A stretch of DNA of 64,000 bases from a virus (lineage: Duplodnaviria; Caudoviricetes). Location of the stretch: IMG/VR virus record IMGVR_UViG_3300044991_001466; one strand, 5' to 3'. Position 1 is the first letter of the stretch. Every line of letters begins with the position of its first letter. A program made the position numbers and the translations under genes. Positions 10,643 to 25,356 of this stretch are shown here, piece by piece. The notes beneath the pieces are model-generated. The model worked only from the letters and a program-made list of their open reading frames with translations. It made no database searches and was not told the DNA's origin.

Positions 10643-11134
10643 TTATTTTTCCCCCTTTGTTCTGTCCCATTTAGCCGCTCTTGCTTCTGGTGACAAATGA
10701 AGTTTTTCGTCTATAGTGTGTTCAATTTTAACCCTAATACAGGTCTGAGGTGTCCTACAGTTCATAAAGTAGTTATTTATATAACCCATCATGTTTGCAC
10801 TACCAATAGGATTGGCTGAATGGACATAAATTTGAGGTAAGGGTATTTTAGTATTCATACTTTCACTTACCAAATATCTACAACAATCCATACCGGTTTT
10901 TTCATCAATGTTATTATAATTTAATTCATAATTATTTTTAACATTTGTATAATATTCAATCATAGCACCATCACCTAAATCGTGATCAAGTGATATAACA
11001 TCAAAATTTTCTAATCCATGTAATTTAATTTTTGCAACAAATTCATCGTAATTACGAACAATTATCCAATCATTATCCAAAGGCGTACGAACGTCATCCA
11101 AATACAATCTCAATTTATTATTAATTTTCATCAT
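10643..11134 (-). CDS. Cyclic-phosphate-processing receiver-like domain protein
   Basis: LYLDDVRTP, VRNYDEF, ISLDHDLG, TGMD and VHSANPIG motifs; adjacent to an RNA ligase. Confidence 0.7.
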   Translation of the reverse strand: MMKINNKLRLYLDDVRTPLDNDWIIVRNYDEFVAKIKLHGLENFDVISLDHDLGDGAMIEYYTNVKNNYELNYNNIDEKTGMDCCRYLVSESMNTKIPLPQIYVHSANPIGSANMMGYINNYFMNCRTPQTCIRVKIEHTIDEKLHLSPEARAAKWDRTKGEK

Positions 11135-12158
11135 TTTTAAATGGCTTTGAATAATTTGGATATATAATTTTCCAAATATTTTTTTTATGTTCTTTTCCGT
11201 CTAACATGTTAAATAAAATGTTAGAGTGTCTATATTCTTTTGCTCTAATCGCAAACTCTTTTCTATCTAAATTTCGTGATTTTAAATTCTCATAAATCTC
11301 AATATAGTCCTTATTAATATTATCAAATCTAATAGTAAAATCCCTAATAGTTTCTTTAACCCAACCGTTAAATTCGTCTGGAACTCTTTCAAGTAATTCA
11401 TCGAACGGTTTATTGTCTTTCAAATATTCCCATATATCACGATTAGATATGTTAGTTAAAATTTTGTGAAGTCTAACATATTCTTCTCCTTTGATTTTCA
11501 TACGAAAACCATTCTTAAATTTAATTACATATCCCTCTCTGTCTTTACTAATTTCTTCTTTAAGTAAATCATATCCTTCTCCCCAAGTCTTATATGTCAT
11601 TACAACTTCAAATCCCGAATCCTGCGTCCAAAACAAACTACTATCAGGTATTTCTTCACCTGTTTCTGTATGAAAACCACCAATAACAACTAATTTTTCT
11701 TCACCTTTATAATCAACAACAATTCTATTTTCAGGATAAATAATTTCAAACAAATATGTATTGTCTTTTCTCCATGCACTGATGTCGTGTCTATCAAGAA
11801 TTTCTTTACCCTTAATTGCCTGTGGTGATGTGAATGATCCGCGTGTTGCCATTATCCACTCATTTTCATAATTAAAAAGAATACCTAATGAACCATCCAT
11901 CTTTTCATATACGACATAATCTTCATTTGGAATATCTTCTGGTTTATGTTCTTCGTAGTTGAAAAATTTCTTAAATGGTCGAGCAACAATATCACCTTTT
12001 GAATTTGTAACCAATCCACGACATTGCAAAGTAATCTCATCCCATAATCTTTCGTACTGAACTTTTGGACTATAATTCCAAATAGTTAAATCAAGGGTTG
12101 GATGGGTTTGTTTATGTAACAAACCATCTTTGTGGTATCTTTCTAATGTTTCTAACAT
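11121..12158 (-). CDS. T4 Rnl1-like RNA ligase
   Basis: CRGLV, ARPFKKFFN, adenylation motif EKMDGSLG, ATRGSF, FEII, EGYV and KIKGEEY. Confidence 0.9.
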   Translation of the reverse strand: MLETLERYHKDGLLHKQTHPTLDLTIWNYSPKVQYERLWDEITLQCRGLVTNSKGDIVARPFKKFFNYEEHKPEDIPNEDYVVYEKMDGSLGILFNYENEWIMATRGSFTSPQAIKGKEILDRHDISAWRKDNTYLFEIIYPENRIVVDYKGEEKLVVIGGFHTETGEEIPDSSLFWTQDSGFEVVMTYKTWGEGYDLLKEEISKDREGYVIKFKNGFRMKIKGEEYVRLHKILTNISNRDIWEYLKDNKPFDELLERVPDEFNGWVKETIRDFTIRFDNINKDYIEIYENLKSRNLDRKEFAIRAKEYRHSNILFNMLDGKEHKKNIWKIIYPNYSKPFKNDEN

Positions 12159-12403
12159 TACTTGATGGGTTTATAAAATCCAATATTGTAAGTCCATTTC
12201 AACCAATTAAATGACAAGTATATACCACATAATTTATTATCTAATAATGTTCTATGTGATTCTGGTTCACATGTTTCAAAATAAAAATATACAAAGGGTA
12301 ATGGGTATACAGCCCATTGATTTTTAAATAAACTTGAATGAAATTTCATATTTCGTTGTTTTGGTAATGTTGTTTTAAAATAAGATTCAATAAATTGACT
12401 CAT
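12158..12403 (-). CDS. Hypothetical protein
   Basis: Abuts flanking genes in the same operon. Confidence 0.5.
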   Translation of the reverse strand: MSQFIESYFKTTLPKQRNMKFHSSLFKNQWAVYPLPFVYFYFETCEPESHRTLLDNKLCGIYLSFNWLKWTYNIGFYKPIK

Positions 12404-12832
12404 CTATAACTTTATTTCAAACCTATCCTTCATTTGTTGGAGTTTATTTTCGGGTACTCCGTGAATATTTTCATTACCATGTCTGTTTTCAACAACCACA
12501 CAATGTACTCGGTAATTATACCTTTCAGCCATTTCAAAATAAGTTTTCATTTCCCATTCTTGGGTAAAAGTATTTGCAACAACTATACGAGCAATTCCCT
12601 GTCTCATTCTTTCTGAACATCTAAATTGACAATAGTTATGTGCTTCTTTTATTTTGGTGCCATCAAAAATATAATCACCATCATCGTTAACAAAAAAATC
12701 ATCCGCAGATAAAACTTCTTGCGGATTATTATTTGGTTGTAATAATATAATATTTGCTATTGTTGATTTTCCTGAACCAGGAATTCCTCTTAAAAGTATT
12801 AAATCACCATTTATTTCATTTACATTATCCAT
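12404..12832 (-). CDS. P-loop polynucleotide kinase-like protein (AAA_33 type)
   Basis: Walker A RGIPGSGKST, SADDF, VVANTF and HGVP; clustered with the RNA ligase. Confidence 0.8.
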   Translation of the reverse strand: MDNVNEINGDLILLRGIPGSGKSTIANIILLQPNNNPQEVLSADDFFVNDDGDYIFDGTKIKEAHNYCQFRCSERMRQGIARIVVANTFTQEWEMKTYFEMAERYNYRVHCVVVENRHGNENIHGVPENKLQQMKDRFEIKL

Positions 12833-13114: not shown

Positions 13115-13142
13115 AAAAAACCCCAACGAGATGTCGGGGTTT
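13115..13142 (-). terminator. Rho-independent terminator
   Basis: On the minus strand aaaccccgac-atctc-gttgggg followed by a T6 run. Confidence 0.75.
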
Positions 13143-13216
13143 AAGGTCTTTGGGTGGGTTCAACCCCACTTACTTATTAAAAAAACGAAAAGGTAATCGA
13201 CAAAGAGAACCTTCAA
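13143..13216 (-). ncRNA. Candidate small structured RNA (or 18-aa TTG-initiated peptide)
   Basis: Lies between TATTTATA (13220-13227, minus) and a terminator. The ends pair (AAGG..UCUUUG with CAAAGACCUU) and there is an internal hairpin GUGGG-GUUGAA-CCCAC. Confidence 0.4.
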
Positions 13217-13251
13217 GAATATAAATATATATGTTTTTACAAAAAAACAAA

Positions 13252-15273
13252 CTATTTATCAATCTTTTTCGTGATTATTAATTTTTGATCTTTGGATTTT
13301 AAAGTGATTTGTTCATTTTCAACAATGTTACCTTTCAATATTTCTTCACTTAAAAAATCTTCACAAAGATTTTGGATAATTCTTTTAATAGGTCTCGCAC
13401 CATATTCTTCTTGTGAATTTAATTCAAATACTCTTAAGGTTACTGATTTGTCAAAAGTTACCTTGTAGTTTTTATCTTTTAAACGATTATTCAATTTACC
13501 AATTTCAATATTGATAATTTTCTTTAAGGTTTCATCATTTAATGAATTGAATAGAACAACATCGTCAATACGATTTAAAAATTCAGGATTAAATTGTTGT
13601 TTTAATGCCTTTTGAATCATTGTCTTTCTAACTTCATATTTTTGAACTTCAGAAGATGATGTTGAGAACCCAACTCCACCACCAAACTCTGAAACTTTTT
13701 TGGCTCCGATGTTTGATGTCATGATAATTAAACAATTCGTAAAATTAACTTTTCTACCAAATGAATCTGTTAAATGTCCTTCATCTAAAATTTGTAATAG
13801 TAAATTGAAAACATCCTTATGAGCCTTCTCAATTTCATCAAATAAAATGACAGAGAATGGGTTATTTTTAACTTTCTCAGTTAATTGACCCCCTTCATCA
13901 TAACCAACGAAACCTGGAGGAGAACCGATTAATTTTGAAACGTTATGTCTATCCATATATTCGCTCATATCAATACGAATAATTTTTTCAGGGTCACCAA
14001 ATAAAAATTCAGCTAATGTCTTCGCCAAATATGTTTTACCAACACCGGTGGAACCTAAGAAAATAAACGAACCTATTGGTTTATTAGCGTCTTTTATTCC
14101 AACACGATTTCTTCGTATTGATTTAGATATTGTCATTACAGCCTCTTCTTGACCAATTACTTTTTCCCCAAGTAATGTTTCAAAATTTAATAACTTTTGA
14201 GTTTCTTTAGAATCTAATTTTGAAATTGGTACTCCAGTCATTTCGGAAATAATCACATAAACGTCATCAACTGATACGGGTATTTTATTATCTTTTTGTT
14301 TTTCAGACCATTTTATTTTTTCGTCTTCAAGTTTATCCATTATTTTTCGTTCATCATCTCTTAATTTGGCTGCTTGCTCATAATTTTGAGATTTCACTAC
14401 TTGGATTTTTCTTTCTTTAATTTCGTCCGCCTGTTTCTTTAATTTTTCAATGGATTCAGGAATTCTAGTTGAAATCCTTTTTTCAGAACCAAGTTCATCT
14501 AAAACATCAATCGCTTTATCAGGAAATTGTCTATCAGTGATATAACGACCTGCAAGTTTAACGATAGTTTCAATCACTCCATCTTCATACGTTACTTTAT
14601 GAAATTCTTGATATGAATTTTTTAGATTTTTTAAAATCTCAATCGTTTCTAATGATGTGGGTTCTTTTAAAATAACTTTTTGAAAACGACGAACTAATGC
14701 CCCGTCTTTTTCAATGTGTTTTTTAAATTCATCAAAGGTCGTCGCACCAATACATTGTAATTCTCCACGAGCCAATGCTGGTTTAAGAATATTTGCGGCG
14801 TCCATTGCACCACTCGCATTACCCGCACCAACCATAGTATGTAATTCATCAATGAATATGATAACATTTGGGGCTTCTTGTAATTCATTAATAATTGCTT
14901 TTATCCTTTCCTCAAACTGTCCACGATATTTAGTTCCAGCAACTAATGACGTTAAATCTAAAGACATAATTCGTTTATCCAATAAATTTGTTGGACAATC
15001 ACCTTTAAGAATCATTAATGCTAGTTTTTCAACTAATGCAGATTTACCCACACCAGGATCACCCACAATAACGGCGTTGTTTTTCTTTTTACGAGAAAGA
15101 ATTTGAGCAATTCTTTTCACTTCCTTGTCCCTACCAACAACAGGGTCAATCTTACCTTCTTCTGCAAGTTTTATTAAATCTCGAGAAAAATTATCCAAAA
15201 TCGGGGTATTCGAACCTTTCCTTACTTTCTTAGGGTTAACTGTTGGTCCATCTTCAAAAAAATCTACTGCCAT
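13252..15273 (-). CDS. clpC: ClpC/ClpB-family AAA+ ATPase lacking the N-terminal domain
   Basis: Two Walker A motifs (GDPGVGKS, GSTGVGKT), Walker B IIFIDELH and ILFDEIEK, UVR-like middle domain, VGF loop. Confidence 0.9.
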   Translation of the reverse strand: MAVDFFEDGPTVNPKKVRKGSNTPILDNFSRDLIKLAEEGKIDPVVGRDKEVKRIAQILSRKKKNNAVIVGDPGVGKSALVEKLALMILKGDCPTNLLDKRIMSLDLTSLVAGTKYRGQFEERIKAIINELQEAPNVIIFIDELHTMVGAGNASGAMDAANILKPALARGELQCIGATTFDEFKKHIEKDGALVRRFQKVILKEPTSLETIEILKNLKNSYQEFHKVTYEDGVIETIVKLAGRYITDRQFPDKAIDVLDELGSEKRISTRIPESIEKLKKQADEIKERKIQVVKSQNYEQAAKLRDDERKIMDKLEDEKIKWSEKQKDNKIPVSVDDVYVIISEMTGVPISKLDSKETQKLLNFETLLGEKVIGQEEAVMTISKSIRRNRVGIKDANKPIGSFIFLGSTGVGKTYLAKTLAEFLFGDPEKIIRIDMSEYMDRHNVSKLIGSPPGFVGYDEGGQLTEKVKNNPFSVILFDEIEKAHKDVFNLLLQILDEGHLTDSFGRKVNFTNCLIIMTSNIGAKKVSEFGGGVGFSTSSSEVQKYEVRKTMIQKALKQQFNPEFLNRIDDVVLFNSLNDETLKKIINIEIGKLNNRLKDKNYKVTFDKSVTLRVFELNSQEEYGARPIKRIIQNLCEDFLSEEILKGNIVENEQITLKSKDQKLIITKKIDK

Positions 15274-20764: not shown

Positions 20765-20772
20765 TATTTATA
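20765..20772 (+). promoter_or_regulatory. TATTTATA late-type motif, 3 nt before terminase ATG
   Basis: gTATTTATAtatATG. Confidence 0.65.
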
Positions 20773-20775
20773 TAT

Positions 20776-22551
20776 ATGAATTCCAAATTAGAACAATTAA
20801 AAGAATATGCAAAGATTATTAAAGATGCCCCATATGCGTTAAAAACATATCTGCAGACTTATGATAATACTCAAAAAAAATATGTTCCATTAGAGTTATT
20901 TCCTGACCAAATTCAATTAATTCAGGATTATGAAAATTATAATGAAAACATCACTAGAAAATATAGACAGGCAGGTGTAACAACAGTAACCGCAGCTTGG
21001 ATTTCAAAAAAATTACAAACAGCAAAAGAAAGTGAACCTGAAAGAGTTCTTCTTATTGCAAACAAAAGAGACACCGCAGTGGAGATGGCTAATAAGGTTA
21101 GACACTTTATTGAACAATGGCCTGAATGGATTAATGTTGGGTTTTCACCCGATAAAAACTCAGAAAGTAGATTTAGATTAAACAATGGTTGTGAGGTTAA
21201 GGCGGTAGCAACATCTGCGGATGCGTTACGTGGTTATACACCAACGATACTTGTATTTGATGAGGCAGCATACATTGAAGCGGGTGATGATTTTTGGGCG
21301 GCATCTATGGCGTCCCTATCAACGGGTGGTAAGATTATTCTTATCTCCACACCAAATGGTTATGACCCCATCTATTACGGTGTTTACGACCAAGCGTTAC
21401 GTGGAATCAATGATTTCCATATAACCGATTTAAGGTGGTTTAAAGACCCACGTTACACTAAAGACTTATCTTGGGTAAAATGTTCTGACATATGTCATTA
21501 CATGTTAAATAGAGAACAATATGACGACAATGAAGTTGTTTTACATGACTTTGATATTGAAAAATACCAAGAACTGGTGGAACAAGGATATAAACCATTT
21601 TCATCTTGGTTTGAATCTATGTCTAAGAAATTTAAATATGATAGACGTAAGATTGCACAGGAATTGGAATGTGACTTCTTAGGTTCAGGAGATGGAGTTA
21701 TTCCTGGTGATATTCAAGAGAATATCGCTAAGAATATGATACGAGTTCCTAAAGAAAAGTATATGCAAGGAACGTTTTGGCAGTGGAAAGAGCCGGTTGA
21801 AGGTCATAGGTATATTATGGGTGTCGATGTTAGTAGAGGAGATAGTGAGGATTTTTCTTCAATTAATATTGTTGATTTTGACGATAGAGAACAAGTTGTT
21901 GAATACATAGGAAAAATACCACCAGATGATTTGGCTAATATTGCATACAAATGGGGTATATTATACGATTGTTTTATTGTGATTGATATTACTGGTGGTA
22001 TGGGTGTTGCAACATCAAGAAAGTTACAAGAAATGAATTACAAAAACCTTTTCATTGATGGGATTAACACTCAGAATATTTGGGAATATAATAGAAAGGC
22101 TTTAGATAAAATTCCTGGTATAAATTTTAACAATAAAAGAACTCAAATTGTTGCAGCATTTGAAGAACAACTTAGAAAAGGATTTTTAGTTAGGTCAAGT
22201 CGACTATTAAATGAATTAAACACTTTTGTTTATATGAATGGAAGACCTGACCACATGAAGGGGGCTCATGACGACTCAATTATGAGTATGTCGATGGCTC
22301 TTTATGCTGGTGATATGTGTTTCAATCAATTACAAAGGAACGATTCTAAAAATAAGGCGGTAATTGAATCATGGGCATTATCCGAAAGAACTTATGAACC
22401 CTCTAAAACACATTACTCATATGGTTCATCTTTTGACCAAATAGGTGCAATGGGTATGGATACTAACAATATTTACCATAAAGATAATCCAACAAACATA
22501 CCTAAAGACGTTTATAGAGAACATATGTGGTTATTTGGGAAATCTAAATAA
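20776..22551 (+). CDS. terL: Terminase large subunit (T4 gp17-like)
   Basis: KYRQAGVTT (Walker A variant), ILVFDEAAY (Walker B), STPNG, nuclease GVDVSRG and HDD. Confidence 0.92.
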   Translation: MNSKLEQLKEYAKIIKDAPYALKTYLQTYDNTQKKYVPLELFPDQIQLIQDYENYNENITRKYRQAGVTTVTAAWISKKLQTAKESEPERVLLIANKRDTAVEMANKVRHFIEQWPEWINVGFSPDKNSESRFRLNNGCEVKAVATSADALRGYTPTILVFDEAAYIEAGDDFWAASMASLSTGGKIILISTPNGYDPIYYGVYDQALRGINDFHITDLRWFKDPRYTKDLSWVKCSDICHYMLNREQYDDNEVVLHDFDIEKYQELVEQGYKPFSSWFESMSKKFKYDRRKIAQELECDFLGSGDGVIPGDIQENIAKNMIRVPKEKYMQGTFWQWKEPVEGHRYIMGVDVSRGDSEDFSSINIVDFDDREQVVEYIGKIPPDDLANIAYKWGILYDCFIVIDITGGMGVATSRKLQEMNYKNLFIDGINTQNIWEYNRKALDKIPGINFNNKRTQIVAAFEEQLRKGFLVRSSRLLNELNTFVYMNGRPDHMKGAHDDSIMSMSMALYAGDMCFNQLQRNDSKNKAVIESWALSERTYEPSKTHYSYGSSFDQIGAMGMDTNNIYHKDNPTNIPKDVYREHMWLFGKSK

Positions 22552-22605
22552 TCTTCCTATTATCAAAATTATAGTTTATATTATAAAGAAAAGTATTTAT
22601 ATAGA

Positions 22606-24423
22606 ATGGCAAATCAAAACTCCACCGTATTTCAGAAGTTAACTAGAATGTTTGGTTTCCCTGGTCAACAGGCTCAACAAACACCATCTTTTAATTTTAA
22701 CAAAGACGAATTATTAAAAACAGATAGTAGAGAAGACTACGAGAAAGCAATGTTACAGGCTCAACAGAGTCAATATATTGCAGACAAATGGTCAAAATTG
22801 GACCAATCATTATACAACCAATCGGTTTACTATGAACCAACAAGAATGGCTGCGTATTATGATTATGAATCAATGGAATTTACTCCTGAGGTATCCGCAG
22901 CATTAGACATATACGCTGAGGAATCTACCACTATGTCAGAAAAGGGTGAAATATTAACAATATACTCGGAATCAGATAGAATTAAAACAATACTTGAGGA
23001 TTTATTTCAAAACAAATTGGACATTAACACAAACCTACAAATGTGGGCTAGAGGTATGGCGAAATATGGTGATGATTTTGTTTATTTAAAAATTGATCCA
23101 GAAAAAGGTATTATTGGTGTACAACAATTACCAAATATTGAAATTGAAAGAATTGAAGGTGCGTCAACTAAGAAAGCAATTAATACAGATAGTAAAGTAC
23201 CATCAAGAGAATTAAGATTTCAATGGAAAAATAAAGATTTAGAATTTCAAGCTTGGGAAGTTGCACATTTTAGATTGTTAGGTGACGATAGAAAGTTACC
23301 ATATGGTACTTCAATGTTAGATAAGATTAGAAGAATTTGGAAACAACTTTTACTTGCTGAAGATGCAATGTTAATTTACAGAACATCTAGAGCACCTGAA
23401 AGACGTGTATTTAAAATATTTGTGGGTAACATGGACGATAAAGATATCGAACCATATGTACAAAAAGTTGCAAATAAATTTAAACGTCAACCAGTGTCTG
23501 ACCCTCGTAATGGTCAAGTTGATATGAGATATAATCAAATGGCTGTAGACCAAGATTATTTTGTACCTGTTCGTGATCCAGGTCAAACTATGCCGATTGA
23601 AACATTACCAGGGGCACAAAATTTAGGTGAAATTGCCGACATTGAATATATTCAAAAGAAAATGTTGGCAGCACTTCGTATTCCTAAAGCATTTTTAGGT
23701 TTTGAAGAAGTTGTTGGTGACGGAAAAAATCTTGCATTAATGGATATACGTTTTGCAAGAACAATTAATAAAATACAAAAATCATTAATACAAGAATTAA
23801 ATAAAGTTGCTTTAATCCATCTATATCTTTTAGGTATGGAGGATGAATTAAATAATTTTACACTTTCATTAACTAATCCATCATCTCAATCCGATTTATT
23901 AAAAATTGAAATGTGGAAAGAGAAGATAACACTTTATAAAGATGCAACATCAGACCAATCACAAATTGGTATATTACCTGTATCTCACACATGGGCTAAG
24001 AAAAATATTCTTGGATTTAGTGATAATGAAGTTGTTTTAGATTTACAACAACAACGTCTTGAAAGAGCAATGGGATTTGAATTAAACAATACACAGAATG
24101 TAATTAAACGTTCAGGTGTGTTTGATGATGTGGATGCAAAGTATGGTATTTCGGAAGAAGATAGAGAAAAGGCGATGGATGCTGCAGGTGGTGAAGCACC
24201 GGGTGGTGGTGATATGTTAGGTGGAGGAATGCCATCAACGCCAGAACCACCAGCGGCTGGAGGAGACGCACCACTAAGTGAATCTACTAAATCAAAGAAA
24301 TCAAAAATATTAGGTATGCTAGGTGAAGAAAAAGAAGATTTCAACTCTTTATTTGATATGAAAAGAGCACAACAGAATATTTATGAAATAGAAACTAAAT
24401 TGAACGATATTTTAAACGATTAA
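22606..24423 (+). CDS. Portal protein (T4 gp20-like)
   Basis: PEVSAALDIYAEE, PYGTSMLDK, EDAMLIYRTSRAPERRVFKI, DYFVPVR, IETLPG, ALRIPK. Confidence 0.93.
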   Translation: MANQNSTVFQKLTRMFGFPGQQAQQTPSFNFNKDELLKTDSREDYEKAMLQAQQSQYIADKWSKLDQSLYNQSVYYEPTRMAAYYDYESMEFTPEVSAALDIYAEESTTMSEKGEILTIYSESDRIKTILEDLFQNKLDINTNLQMWARGMAKYGDDFVYLKIDPEKGIIGVQQLPNIEIERIEGASTKKAINTDSKVPSRELRFQWKNKDLEFQAWEVAHFRLLGDDRKLPYGTSMLDKIRRIWKQLLLAEDAMLIYRTSRAPERRVFKIFVGNMDDKDIEPYVQKVANKFKRQPVSDPRNGQVDMRYNQMAVDQDYFVPVRDPGQTMPIETLPGAQNLGEIADIEYIQKKMLAALRIPKAFLGFEEVVGDGKNLALMDIRFARTINKIQKSLIQELNKVALIHLYLLGMEDELNNFTLSLTNPSSQSDLLKIEMWKEKITLYKDATSDQSQIGILPVSHTWAKKNILGFSDNEVVLDLQQQRLERAMGFELNNTQNVIKRSGVFDDVDAKYGISEEDREKAMDAAGGEAPGGGDMLGGGMPSTPEPPAAGGDAPLSESTKSKKSKILGMLGEEKEDFNSLFDMKRAQQNIYEIETKLNDILND

Positions 24424-25172: not shown

Positions 25173-25356
25173 GACCATTTTTCTTTTGTTGGACATATAT
25201 CGCCTTCAAAACCTCTTTTCTTTTATTCACTGAAGGTTTAACAAACTCCTGTCTTGCTCTTAATTTTTGAACTTGTTTAATTTTTTGAACTTTTTGTTTG
25301 TAAGTTCTTAAAGCACTTTCGAGGCTTTTTTCTTTTGTTACGTCAATTATTATCAT
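25165..25356 (-). CDS. rpsU: Ribosomal protein bS21 (phage-encoded)
   Basis: SLESALRTYKQKV...LRARQEFVKPSVNKR..VLKAIYVQ matches Bacteroidota bS21 (F.KPS..R...KA.Y.Q), with Tyr at position 54. Confidence 0.9.
   Translation of the reverse strand: MIIIDVTKEKSLESALRTYKQKVQKIKQVQKLRARQEFVKPSVNKRKEVLKAIYVQQKKNGLS

Follow-up and report, generated by a model that had tools for sequence, protein, structure and literature searches.

A conserved small RNA gene of bS21-encoding T4-like phages and its predicted pairing in trans with a second phage RNA that carries a ribosome-binding-site-like sequence

The stretch of DNA considered here is a window of 64,000 nucleotides (nt) from the IMG/VR virus record IMGVR_UViG_3300044991_001466 (Duplodnaviria; Caudoviricetes), a 129.7-kb record (G000) that is about 39% complete, and the element in question, called E2, is a small unit that lies with its upstream motif at 13115–13227. 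All coordinates given without a prefix are window positions, and both E2 and the promoter-type box in front of it are on the minus strand. The window carries genes for a T4-type large terminase, a gp20-type portal, a prohead protease and the ribosomal protein bS21, its relatives reach sizes of 334–336 kb, and the genome fits the description by Chen et al. 2022 of freshwater phages that infect Bacteroidetes and encode bS21 (PMC9723584), here a T4-like group of giant phages. That paper mentions no small RNAs, promoters or motifs, and our literature search found no publication describing small RNAs from this phage group. On comparative sequence evidence, E2 is a conserved non-coding RNA gene of about 100 nt and represents a new small RNA family; its 5′ half is complementary to a second phage RNA, called E1, and the pairing of the two in trans is well supported by the way in which their sequences have changed together.

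Homologues of E2 were collected by using the upstream Clp ATPase gene as an anchor together with one exact-word scan, and then by blastn, with further copies added later. By blastn, E2 is present in about 90 loci at 73–98% identity, and in all about 100 uncultured freshwater phage contigs carry it, in almost all cases directly 3′ of the Clp ATPase gene. In an alignment of 66 homologous sequences (A1), the conserved block extends from the AT-rich box to a U tract and has sharp ends, beyond which both flanks diverge. A covariance model (R1) recovered a single copy in the window and one more divergent copy in L050, and no E2 in distant clades whose Clp identity is 62% or less (L070, L074–L081). 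When E2 alone and a 4-kb region were used as queries against deposited phage records, the Clp ATPase gave the only matches and none fell on E2. The whole window gave no match to Rfam 15 at gathering thresholds, in agreement with the novelty that a preliminary description of this DNA had proposed, and under permissive settings the best sub-threshold matches (Phe_leader, with 21 bits against a threshold of 55, and others) cover the terminator only. ARAGORN found no tRNA or tmRNA gene in the window.

Read along the minus strand, the locus begins with the stop codon of a 673-aa gene, followed by the AT-rich box and hairpin P1, after which come the U-rich CCUUUUCGUUUUUUU, AUAAGUA, the GUGGG/CCCAC hairpin, CCAAAGACCUU and a terminator. 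The features are as follows, with pairing values taken from A1.

13252–15273, minus strand: gene of a ClpC/ClpA-like double-AAA+ unfoldase of 673 aa (Pfam AAA_2, AAA_lid_9, AAA and ClpB_D2-small)
13219–13232, minus strand: promoter-type box ATATATATTTATAT with the core TATTTATA at 13220–13227; T19–T25 are invariant in 66 of 66 homologues
13160–13216, minus strand: 18-codon frame opening with TTG, not a gene; neither start nor frame is conserved
13115–13213, minus strand: predicted E2 RNA of about 100 nt, from the motif to the terminator U tract, with an inferred 5′ end
13191–13212, minus strand: hairpin P1, AGGU (13212–13209) with ACCU (13194–13191), 97.7% paired
13154–13169, minus strand: hairpin P2, GUGGG-GUUGAA-CCCAC, 97.9% paired; 5 of 5 pairs change on both sides and the loop is invariant
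13144–13148, minus strand: GACCU between P2 and the terminator, nearly invariant
13115–13142, minus strand: intrinsic terminator found by a terminator scan, a 10-bp stem AAACCCCGAC/GUUGGGGUUU with a U tract, 100% paired; 5 of 10 pairs change on both sides

All the features that the preliminary description had read at this locus are present in the letters, among them the motif TATTTATA at 13227–13220 and the segments AAGG..CUCUUUG and CAAAGA-CCUU, which are able to pair. The closed, three-way fold that it built on these segments is indeed the one of lowest energy for the 100-nt transcript (−30.4 kcal/mol, z = −3.3, with 0 of 200 shuffles as good; two computations gave z-scores of −3.3 and −3.5). 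Comparison of the 66 homologues keeps one part of this fold and discards another: the GUGGG/CCCAC hairpin (13169–13154) and the terminator with its U tract (13142–13115) are backed by covariation, whereas the closing helix and the UUAC/GUAA arm are 79–83% paired, show almost no compensatory change and have no comparative support. RNAalifold returned three local helices, namely P1, P2 and the terminator, which together are 99.1% paired in A1 with 12 of 21 pairs changed on both sides, a result that none of 500 shuffles reached. P1 has a 14-nt loop with the invariant UCUUUGYCGA; two-sided changes affect 2 of the 4 stem pairs, as in the compensatory variants AGGC/GCCU, AGGA/UCCU and AGAU/AUCU. In the window sequence GACCU can also close onto the 5′ AGGU; in L048 and L027, where P1 has changed, the local partner compensates but the distal GACCU does not. 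Besides UCUUUGYCGA, the segments GUUGAA, CCUUUUCG and GACC are invariant or nearly so.

The order of these elements, in which a promoter, a structured RNA and a terminator are followed 48 nt later by a gene start, could also be that of a transcription-attenuating, riboswitch-like leader of the downstream lipoprotein gene. We regard this as highly improbable, since such a leader would call for a constant downstream gene and a terminator/antiterminator alternative and E2 has neither: the lipoprotein gene is missing in many relatives and a kinase gene stands directly next in some, and there is no conserved antiterminator, the candidate pairing of P2 (GGGGUU) with the terminator 5′ arm (AACCCC) being lost in variants such as L048 and L025. 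Moreover, the lipoprotein gene has a motif-like box of its own, and the conserved 5′ half of E2 is accounted for by the pairing with E1.

The core of the box in front of E2 recurs throughout the record, where 34 of the 47 copies of TATTTATA are intergenic although non-coding DNA makes up 7.5% of the genome. Its placement depends on orientation, as ATATTTAT lies within 60 nt upstream of a gene start in 22 of 36 sense copies versus 6 of 33 antisense copies, and the distance from the motif to the ATG is 3 nt for the terminase gene, 4 nt for that of portal gp20 and 16 nt for that of the prohead protease. A simple count of TATATTTATA with one mismatch gave no enrichment over shuffles, and the signal emerged only after position and orientation relative to genes were considered. 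Because the motif is found upstream of the terminase, portal and protease genes and is orientation-specific, it is a late-gene element of the phage, and E2 shares it with structural genes in the manner of a T4-type late transcription unit. By analogy with the T4 late promoter motif, TATAAATA, TATTTATA is presumably a late promoter. At 20765–20778 and 22594–22608 on the plus strand the motif ends 3–4 nt before the terminase and portal ATGs, as it does before the ATGs of many other genes, and this very short spacing suggests that many late mRNAs of the phage are leaderless or nearly so. The preliminary description had offered a novel late small RNA (sRNA) as one of two readings of the locus, and this one gains support from the invariant late motif, the covarying hairpins, the intrinsic terminator, the occurrence in about 100 contigs and the lack of an Rfam match.

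Its other reading, an Ibs-like micropeptide, fares differently. A TTG at 13216–13214, 3 nt after the motif, does open the 18-codon frame MKVLFVDYLFVFLISKWG, the comparison with the spacing of ATG genes holds for the terminase and the portal, and about 10 of the 66 homologues keep a comparable frame, M[KEQ]VLFVDYLFV, so that a hydrophobic 18-aa peptide with a leaderless TTG start might be imagined. However, in 46 of the 66 homologues no start codon (ATG, GTG or TTG) lies 10 nt or less from the motif; among the other 20, 5 read TTG-TAG, a start followed at once by a stop, and the rest use three different frames. Indels of 1–2 nt in the U run break the TTG frame, and the substitutions are compensatory in the helices and show no third-codon-position pattern. 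The likeness to the Ibs/Sib type I toxins therefore amounts to a short hydrophobic frame in the window sequence alone, whereas across homologues neither start, frame nor length is conserved and no antisense gene overlaps E2, and we reject the peptide as barely credible.

The neighbourhood of E2 invites a further reading, in which the block would act mainly in cis as the 3′ untranslated region (UTR) and terminator of the ClpC-like mRNA, with the stability of that mRNA controlled by E1 and any stand-alone transcript being secondary. About 20 nt without a terminator separate the Clp stop codon from the start of E2, the position of E2 is kept in nearly all relatives, and sRNAs derived from 3′ UTRs, with or without internal promoters, form a known class (MicL, DapZ). 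We nevertheless consider this arrangement quite unlikely, for the late motif in front of E2 is invariant, and E2 and its box are intact in the two loci where an open reading frame (ORF) of 212–229 aa, without a Pfam match, separates them from the Clp gene (L003:5025–5714 and L068:5031–5669).

The partner RNA, and the segments of E2 that match it, are located as follows.

L106:1274–1390, which is G000:C1 33773–33889, plus strand: E1, a second late unit without an ORF, about 15 kb before the window and about 28 kb from E2, on the other strand
13197–13206, minus strand: segA, UCUUUGUCGA, complementary to E1 UCGACAAAGG (L106:1352–1361)
13183–13193, minus strand: segB, CCUUUUCGUUU, complementary to E1 AAACGAAAAGG (L106:1327–1337), overlapping the 5′ half of AAAGGAGGUG
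13171–13177, minus strand: segC, AUAAGUA, variable, matching E1 UACUUAU (L106:1320–1326)

E1 carries the same late motif as E2. It starts with a covarying 5′ hairpin that has the invariant loop UUGGUC and is followed by GAUAA; then come, in order, UACUUAU, AAACGAAAAGGAGGUG, UUUUAAAUC, UCGACAAAGG and a terminator-type hairpin, which contains the complement of segA (segA′). The sequence AAAGGAGGUG is an extended Shine-Dalgarno (SD)-like sequence, and AAAGGAGGU(G) is a 9–10-nt complement of the Bacteroidia 16S 3′ tail ACCUCCUUUCU (tail sequence from PMC7797042); the complements described in rpsU leaders fall in the same length range (PMC9976891). Between the SD core GAGGU and an invariant AUCUC, a hairpin of 5 pairs can form. 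Just 3′ of E1, at L106:1400–1470, there is a strong bidirectional terminator, and beyond it the apparent 3′ end of a tRNA gene on the opposite strand, a layout that recurs in several relatives. A match to the E1 pattern in L141 was set aside as a chance occurrence inside a GC-rich coding region. One E2 copy, L036:5642–5787, appears to lack about 36 nt, from the last part of the motif through P1 and segA into the first part of segB, with P2 and the terminator intact, and is either a natural deletion variant or an assembly artefact.

The duplex predicted between E1 and E2 is antiparallel and colinear, with about 21–30 bp in all, and between the segB and segA helices a stretch of about 14 nt in E1 (AGGUGUUUUAAAUC) is looped out. 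In the 129.7-kb record, the complement of segB, AAACGAAAAGG, has one other site only, at G000:C1 33826 on the plus strand, that is, within E1. When the 5′ half of E2 was compared by RNAduplex with 17,288 windows on both strands of the record, E1 was the best non-self target (−32.9 kcal/mol, z = −5.3), and 2000 dinucleotide shuffles of E1 gave a mean of −17.7 with a standard deviation of 3.1, none reaching the observed value. In cofolds of the full-length RNAs, the heterodimer is favoured by 6–15 kcal/mol.

Evidence for the pairing also comes from 32 distinct E1/E2 pairs, each taken from one contig, of which 18 clusters served for a test on representatives. Both the segA helix (8–12 bp) and the segB helix (7–17 bp) are contiguous in 32 of 32 pairs. 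Cognate duplexes are more stable than non-cognate ones (−29.9 vs −26.1 kcal/mol; 0 of 10,000 permutations as good, p<1e-4), and the same is true of the 18 cluster representatives (−30.0 vs −26.2; 0 of 50,000 permutations, p<2e-5). Each block taken singly also prefers its cognate partner: segA with p=0.002, segB with p=0.0003, and segC with p<5e-5 (cognate −3.5 vs non-cognate −2.0 kcal/mol). At the single variable position of segA, a Y/R pair, the combinations are C-G in 11 pairs, U-A in 15, U.G in 6 and C/A in 0; in segB, two separate lineages (L211/L129 and L212/L150) have UUUU shortened to UUU in E2 and, to match, AAAA shortened to AAA in E1. The third helix is weak or absent in about half of the lineages, and in other clades segC is replaced by UAGUCU/AGACUA, GAAAACU/AGUUUUC, UUCUCGUU/AACGAGAA or UUUAAAAUU/AAUUUUAAA. 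Finally, in 26 of the 32 pairs the duplex is better between the transcribed strands than between their opposites (Wilcoxon p=0.0002); such a strand-specific advantage is what G-U pairs give, so that the pairing takes place between RNAs.

These observations also bear on the idea that the complementarity is left over from an ancient inverted duplication, or reflects a repeat at the DNA level, and has no function between RNAs. The segA of E2 does resemble the 3′ arm of the E1 terminator, a likeness that suggests common ancestry. We judge this idea very improbable all the same, because clades with Clp proteins of only about 71–89% identity still keep the complementarity, compensatory changes and the replacement of a whole helix are present, and a DNA-level repeat would not make the transcribed strands pair better than the opposite ones. 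E2 is thus a unit with predicted transcription of its own and no ORF, whose complementarity to a partner is kept by compensatory change, as expected of a trans-acting sRNA or anti-sRNA.

Several results weigh against so simple a picture. Most paired positions of segA and segB are invariant on both sides, so there is no covariation signal at them, and the Y/R signal in segA stems from few independent C-G lineages, perhaps 4. The lengths of segB are unmatched in two lineages (L057/L114 and L214/L144). Among searchable E2-bearing related records, which are mostly fragments, 12 of 32 also showed E1 in the one scan made, and the converse scans showed E2 in 24 of 34 E1-bearing records, again mostly fragments. 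The full-length cofolds often keep the E1 terminator stem and use segB and segC only, because segA′ sits in the base of that stem. In G047, a complete genome of 335.6 kb whose pair has no segC, E1 is about the fifth-best non-self duplex (−29.2); the better-ranked matches are interrupted, G-U-rich duplexes in purine-rich coding DNA, and duplex energy alone is therefore not decisive for E1.

The ranking in G047, where several sites pair about as well by raw energy, is one of the points in favour of the view that E2 is a base-pairing regulator of other phage or host mRNAs and that E1 is merely a sponge, a decoy or a second target. Another is that the 3′ half of E2, with the P2 loop GUUGAA and GACCU, is invariant and yet takes no part in the pairing with E1, so that E2 presumably has at least one further partner; the 3′ half probably binds a protein or another RNA. 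No pairing partner for the P2 loop and GACCU (13144–13169) was found in E2, in E1 or elsewhere, and the candidate pairing of E2 GACC with the E1 loop UUGGUC or with the E1 terminator arm was rejected as having only 4 bp or as not conserved. Pairs of a sponge and an sRNA, of the SroC/GcvB and AgvB/GcvB kind, are moreover common in bacteria. On the other side, no other site in G000 comes near E1, the next ones being interrupted, G-U-rich and in coding regions, and the exact 9-mer ACGAAAAGG occurs at no other site in the record. Nor did the candidate targets examined fit: the rpsU leaders of five Bacteroidota genomes pair weakly with E2 (−13 to −20 kcal/mol), and the leader of the phage's own bS21 gene has no SD, no complementarity and no matching site. 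A scan of genome contigs for AACGAAAAGGAGGT gave chance SD-containing matches in many phyla, and 0 of the 18 Bacteroidota-type matches examined precede rpsU, although the test of host rpsU is weak because the true host of the phage has not been identified. On balance, a main role on other mRNAs seems unlikely but deserves to be kept in mind.

We consider it probable that E2 is a stand-alone late non-coding RNA whose 5′ half is antisense to E1, and which would serve as the anti-sRNA partner of an E1 that acts as a ribosome decoy. The closest functional analogues of E2 would be the anti-sRNAs or sponges, which include the prophage-encoded AgvB and AsxR of enterohaemorrhagic Escherichia coli (EHEC) and SroC and 3′ETS-leuZ of enterobacteria. 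The host phylum here, Bacteroidota, in contrast to the enterobacterial cases, to our knowledge largely lacks Hfq. The anti-sRNA class is discussed in PMC12197685 and PMC5286369. As in that class, E2 is a small separate transcript in prediction, its conserved single-stranded region would titrate a functional region of another sRNA, and phage-encoded cases exist. The differences are several: unlike AgvB, AsxR and SroC, to none of which E2 has a sequence or Rfam relation, E1 and E2 both belong to a lytic giant phage and each has the late motif; their pairing is bipartite or tripartite (about 21–30 bp) around a looped-out SD-like sequence; and E1 looks like a mimic of a ribosome-binding site and not like a seed-type sRNA.

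Two other kinds of RNA offer partial comparisons. The antisense RNAs CopA/CopT, RNAI/RNAII and Sok/hok of plasmids and phages, encoded in cis on the strand opposite their targets, have YUNR recognition loops, and E2 is similar in that segA lies in a hairpin loop with a YUNR-type UUUG and segB in the adjacent single strand, an arrangement that matches a nucleate-then-zip mechanism; those RNAs, however, are fully complementary to their targets, whereas E1 and E2 lie 21–28 kb apart and are partly complementary. With the extended SD of rpsU (PMC7797042, PMC9976891), E1 shares the 9–10-nt complement of the 16S 3′ tail. Unlike in rpsU leaders, no start codon follows the E1 SD, E2 itself is neither an mRNA element nor an rRNA, and the rpsU leaders of the five Bacteroidota genomes are not complementary to E2.

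In the anti-sRNA mechanism that we propose, E2 would be transcribed late from TATTTATA and end at its own intrinsic terminator. The first contact would be made by the single-stranded U-rich linker of E2 with the A-rich stretch of E1, from which pairing would spread into CC/GG and open P1, and the P1 loop, with its YUNR-type UUUG, would then invade the base of the E1 terminator hairpin. In free E1, the SD core GAGGU could be paired with AUCUC. In the complex, segB would cover AAAGG, the 5′ half of the extended SD AAAGGAGGUG, segA would also take the UC of AUCUC, which is 2 of the 5 pairs of the small hairpin holding GAGGU, and only about AGGUG of E1 would be left, in an internal loop. As part of the extended SD would thus be covered, the E1 bases open to segB (ACCUUUUCG) and to the 16S tail (ACCUCCUUUCU) overlap, the two would be competitors, and E2 could set or limit how much E1 is free to capture 30S subunits with an exposed anti-SD, that is, those free of bS21. 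Alternatively, E2 may open the E1 SD hairpin, with an effect of opposite sign, the two RNAs may bring about their mutual degradation, or E1 may be a sponge for E2.

The phage-encoded bS21 is the commonest ribosomal protein carried by viruses. In the ribosomes of Bacteroidia, bS21 hides the anti-SD, and use of the extended SD of rpsU is confined to ribosomes without bS21 (PMC9976891, PMC7797042); the present phage group encodes a bS21 (PMC9723584), and the leader of this gene in the window (25192–25347, minus strand) has no Shine-Dalgarno sequence, unlike the host rpsU genes. Taken together, these facts allow a wider idea, possible though less likely than not, in which E1 and E2 form a two-RNA device by which bS21 phages manage host ribosomes late in infection. 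E1 would capture the bS21-lacking 30S subunits that would otherwise translate host rpsU and restore host bS21, and E2 would gate this capture, either by covering half of the extended SD of E1 or by opening its SD hairpin. If this idea is true, nothing described so far would correspond to the pair, a dedicated RNA-RNA switch that acts on ribosome heterogeneity. In sequence, E1 mimics the only strong ribosome-binding site used by Bacteroidia, and E2 is built to pair around the mimic. For the question of how phage bS21 redirects translation (PMC9723584, PMC9976891), a co-evolving late small RNA pair in bS21 phages offers a concrete, testable handle. If the pairing has no effect on ribosomes, E2 would be an ordinary but new phage sRNA; the locus also adds a new RNA family and, for a lytic phage, a rare sRNA-sRNA pair, and does so for a host phylum in which little is known of RNA regulation.

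The genes next to E2 deserve a few remarks. The Clp unfoldase upstream has no N-domain, and it carries a VGF tripeptide at residue 534, the site of ClpP-docking-type loops. McNutt et al. raised the speculative possibility that phages with bS21 also carry a protease system for removing the bS21 of the host (PMC9976891), and in that light the linkage between the Clp gene and E2 may merit attention. Downstream of E2, on the minus strand, lie an AAA_33 (polynucleotide-kinase-like) gene at 12404–12832 and a gene for a T4 Rnl1-type RNA ligase at 11121–12158, and this kinase and ligase, spanning 11121–12832, look like a tRNA-repair pair.

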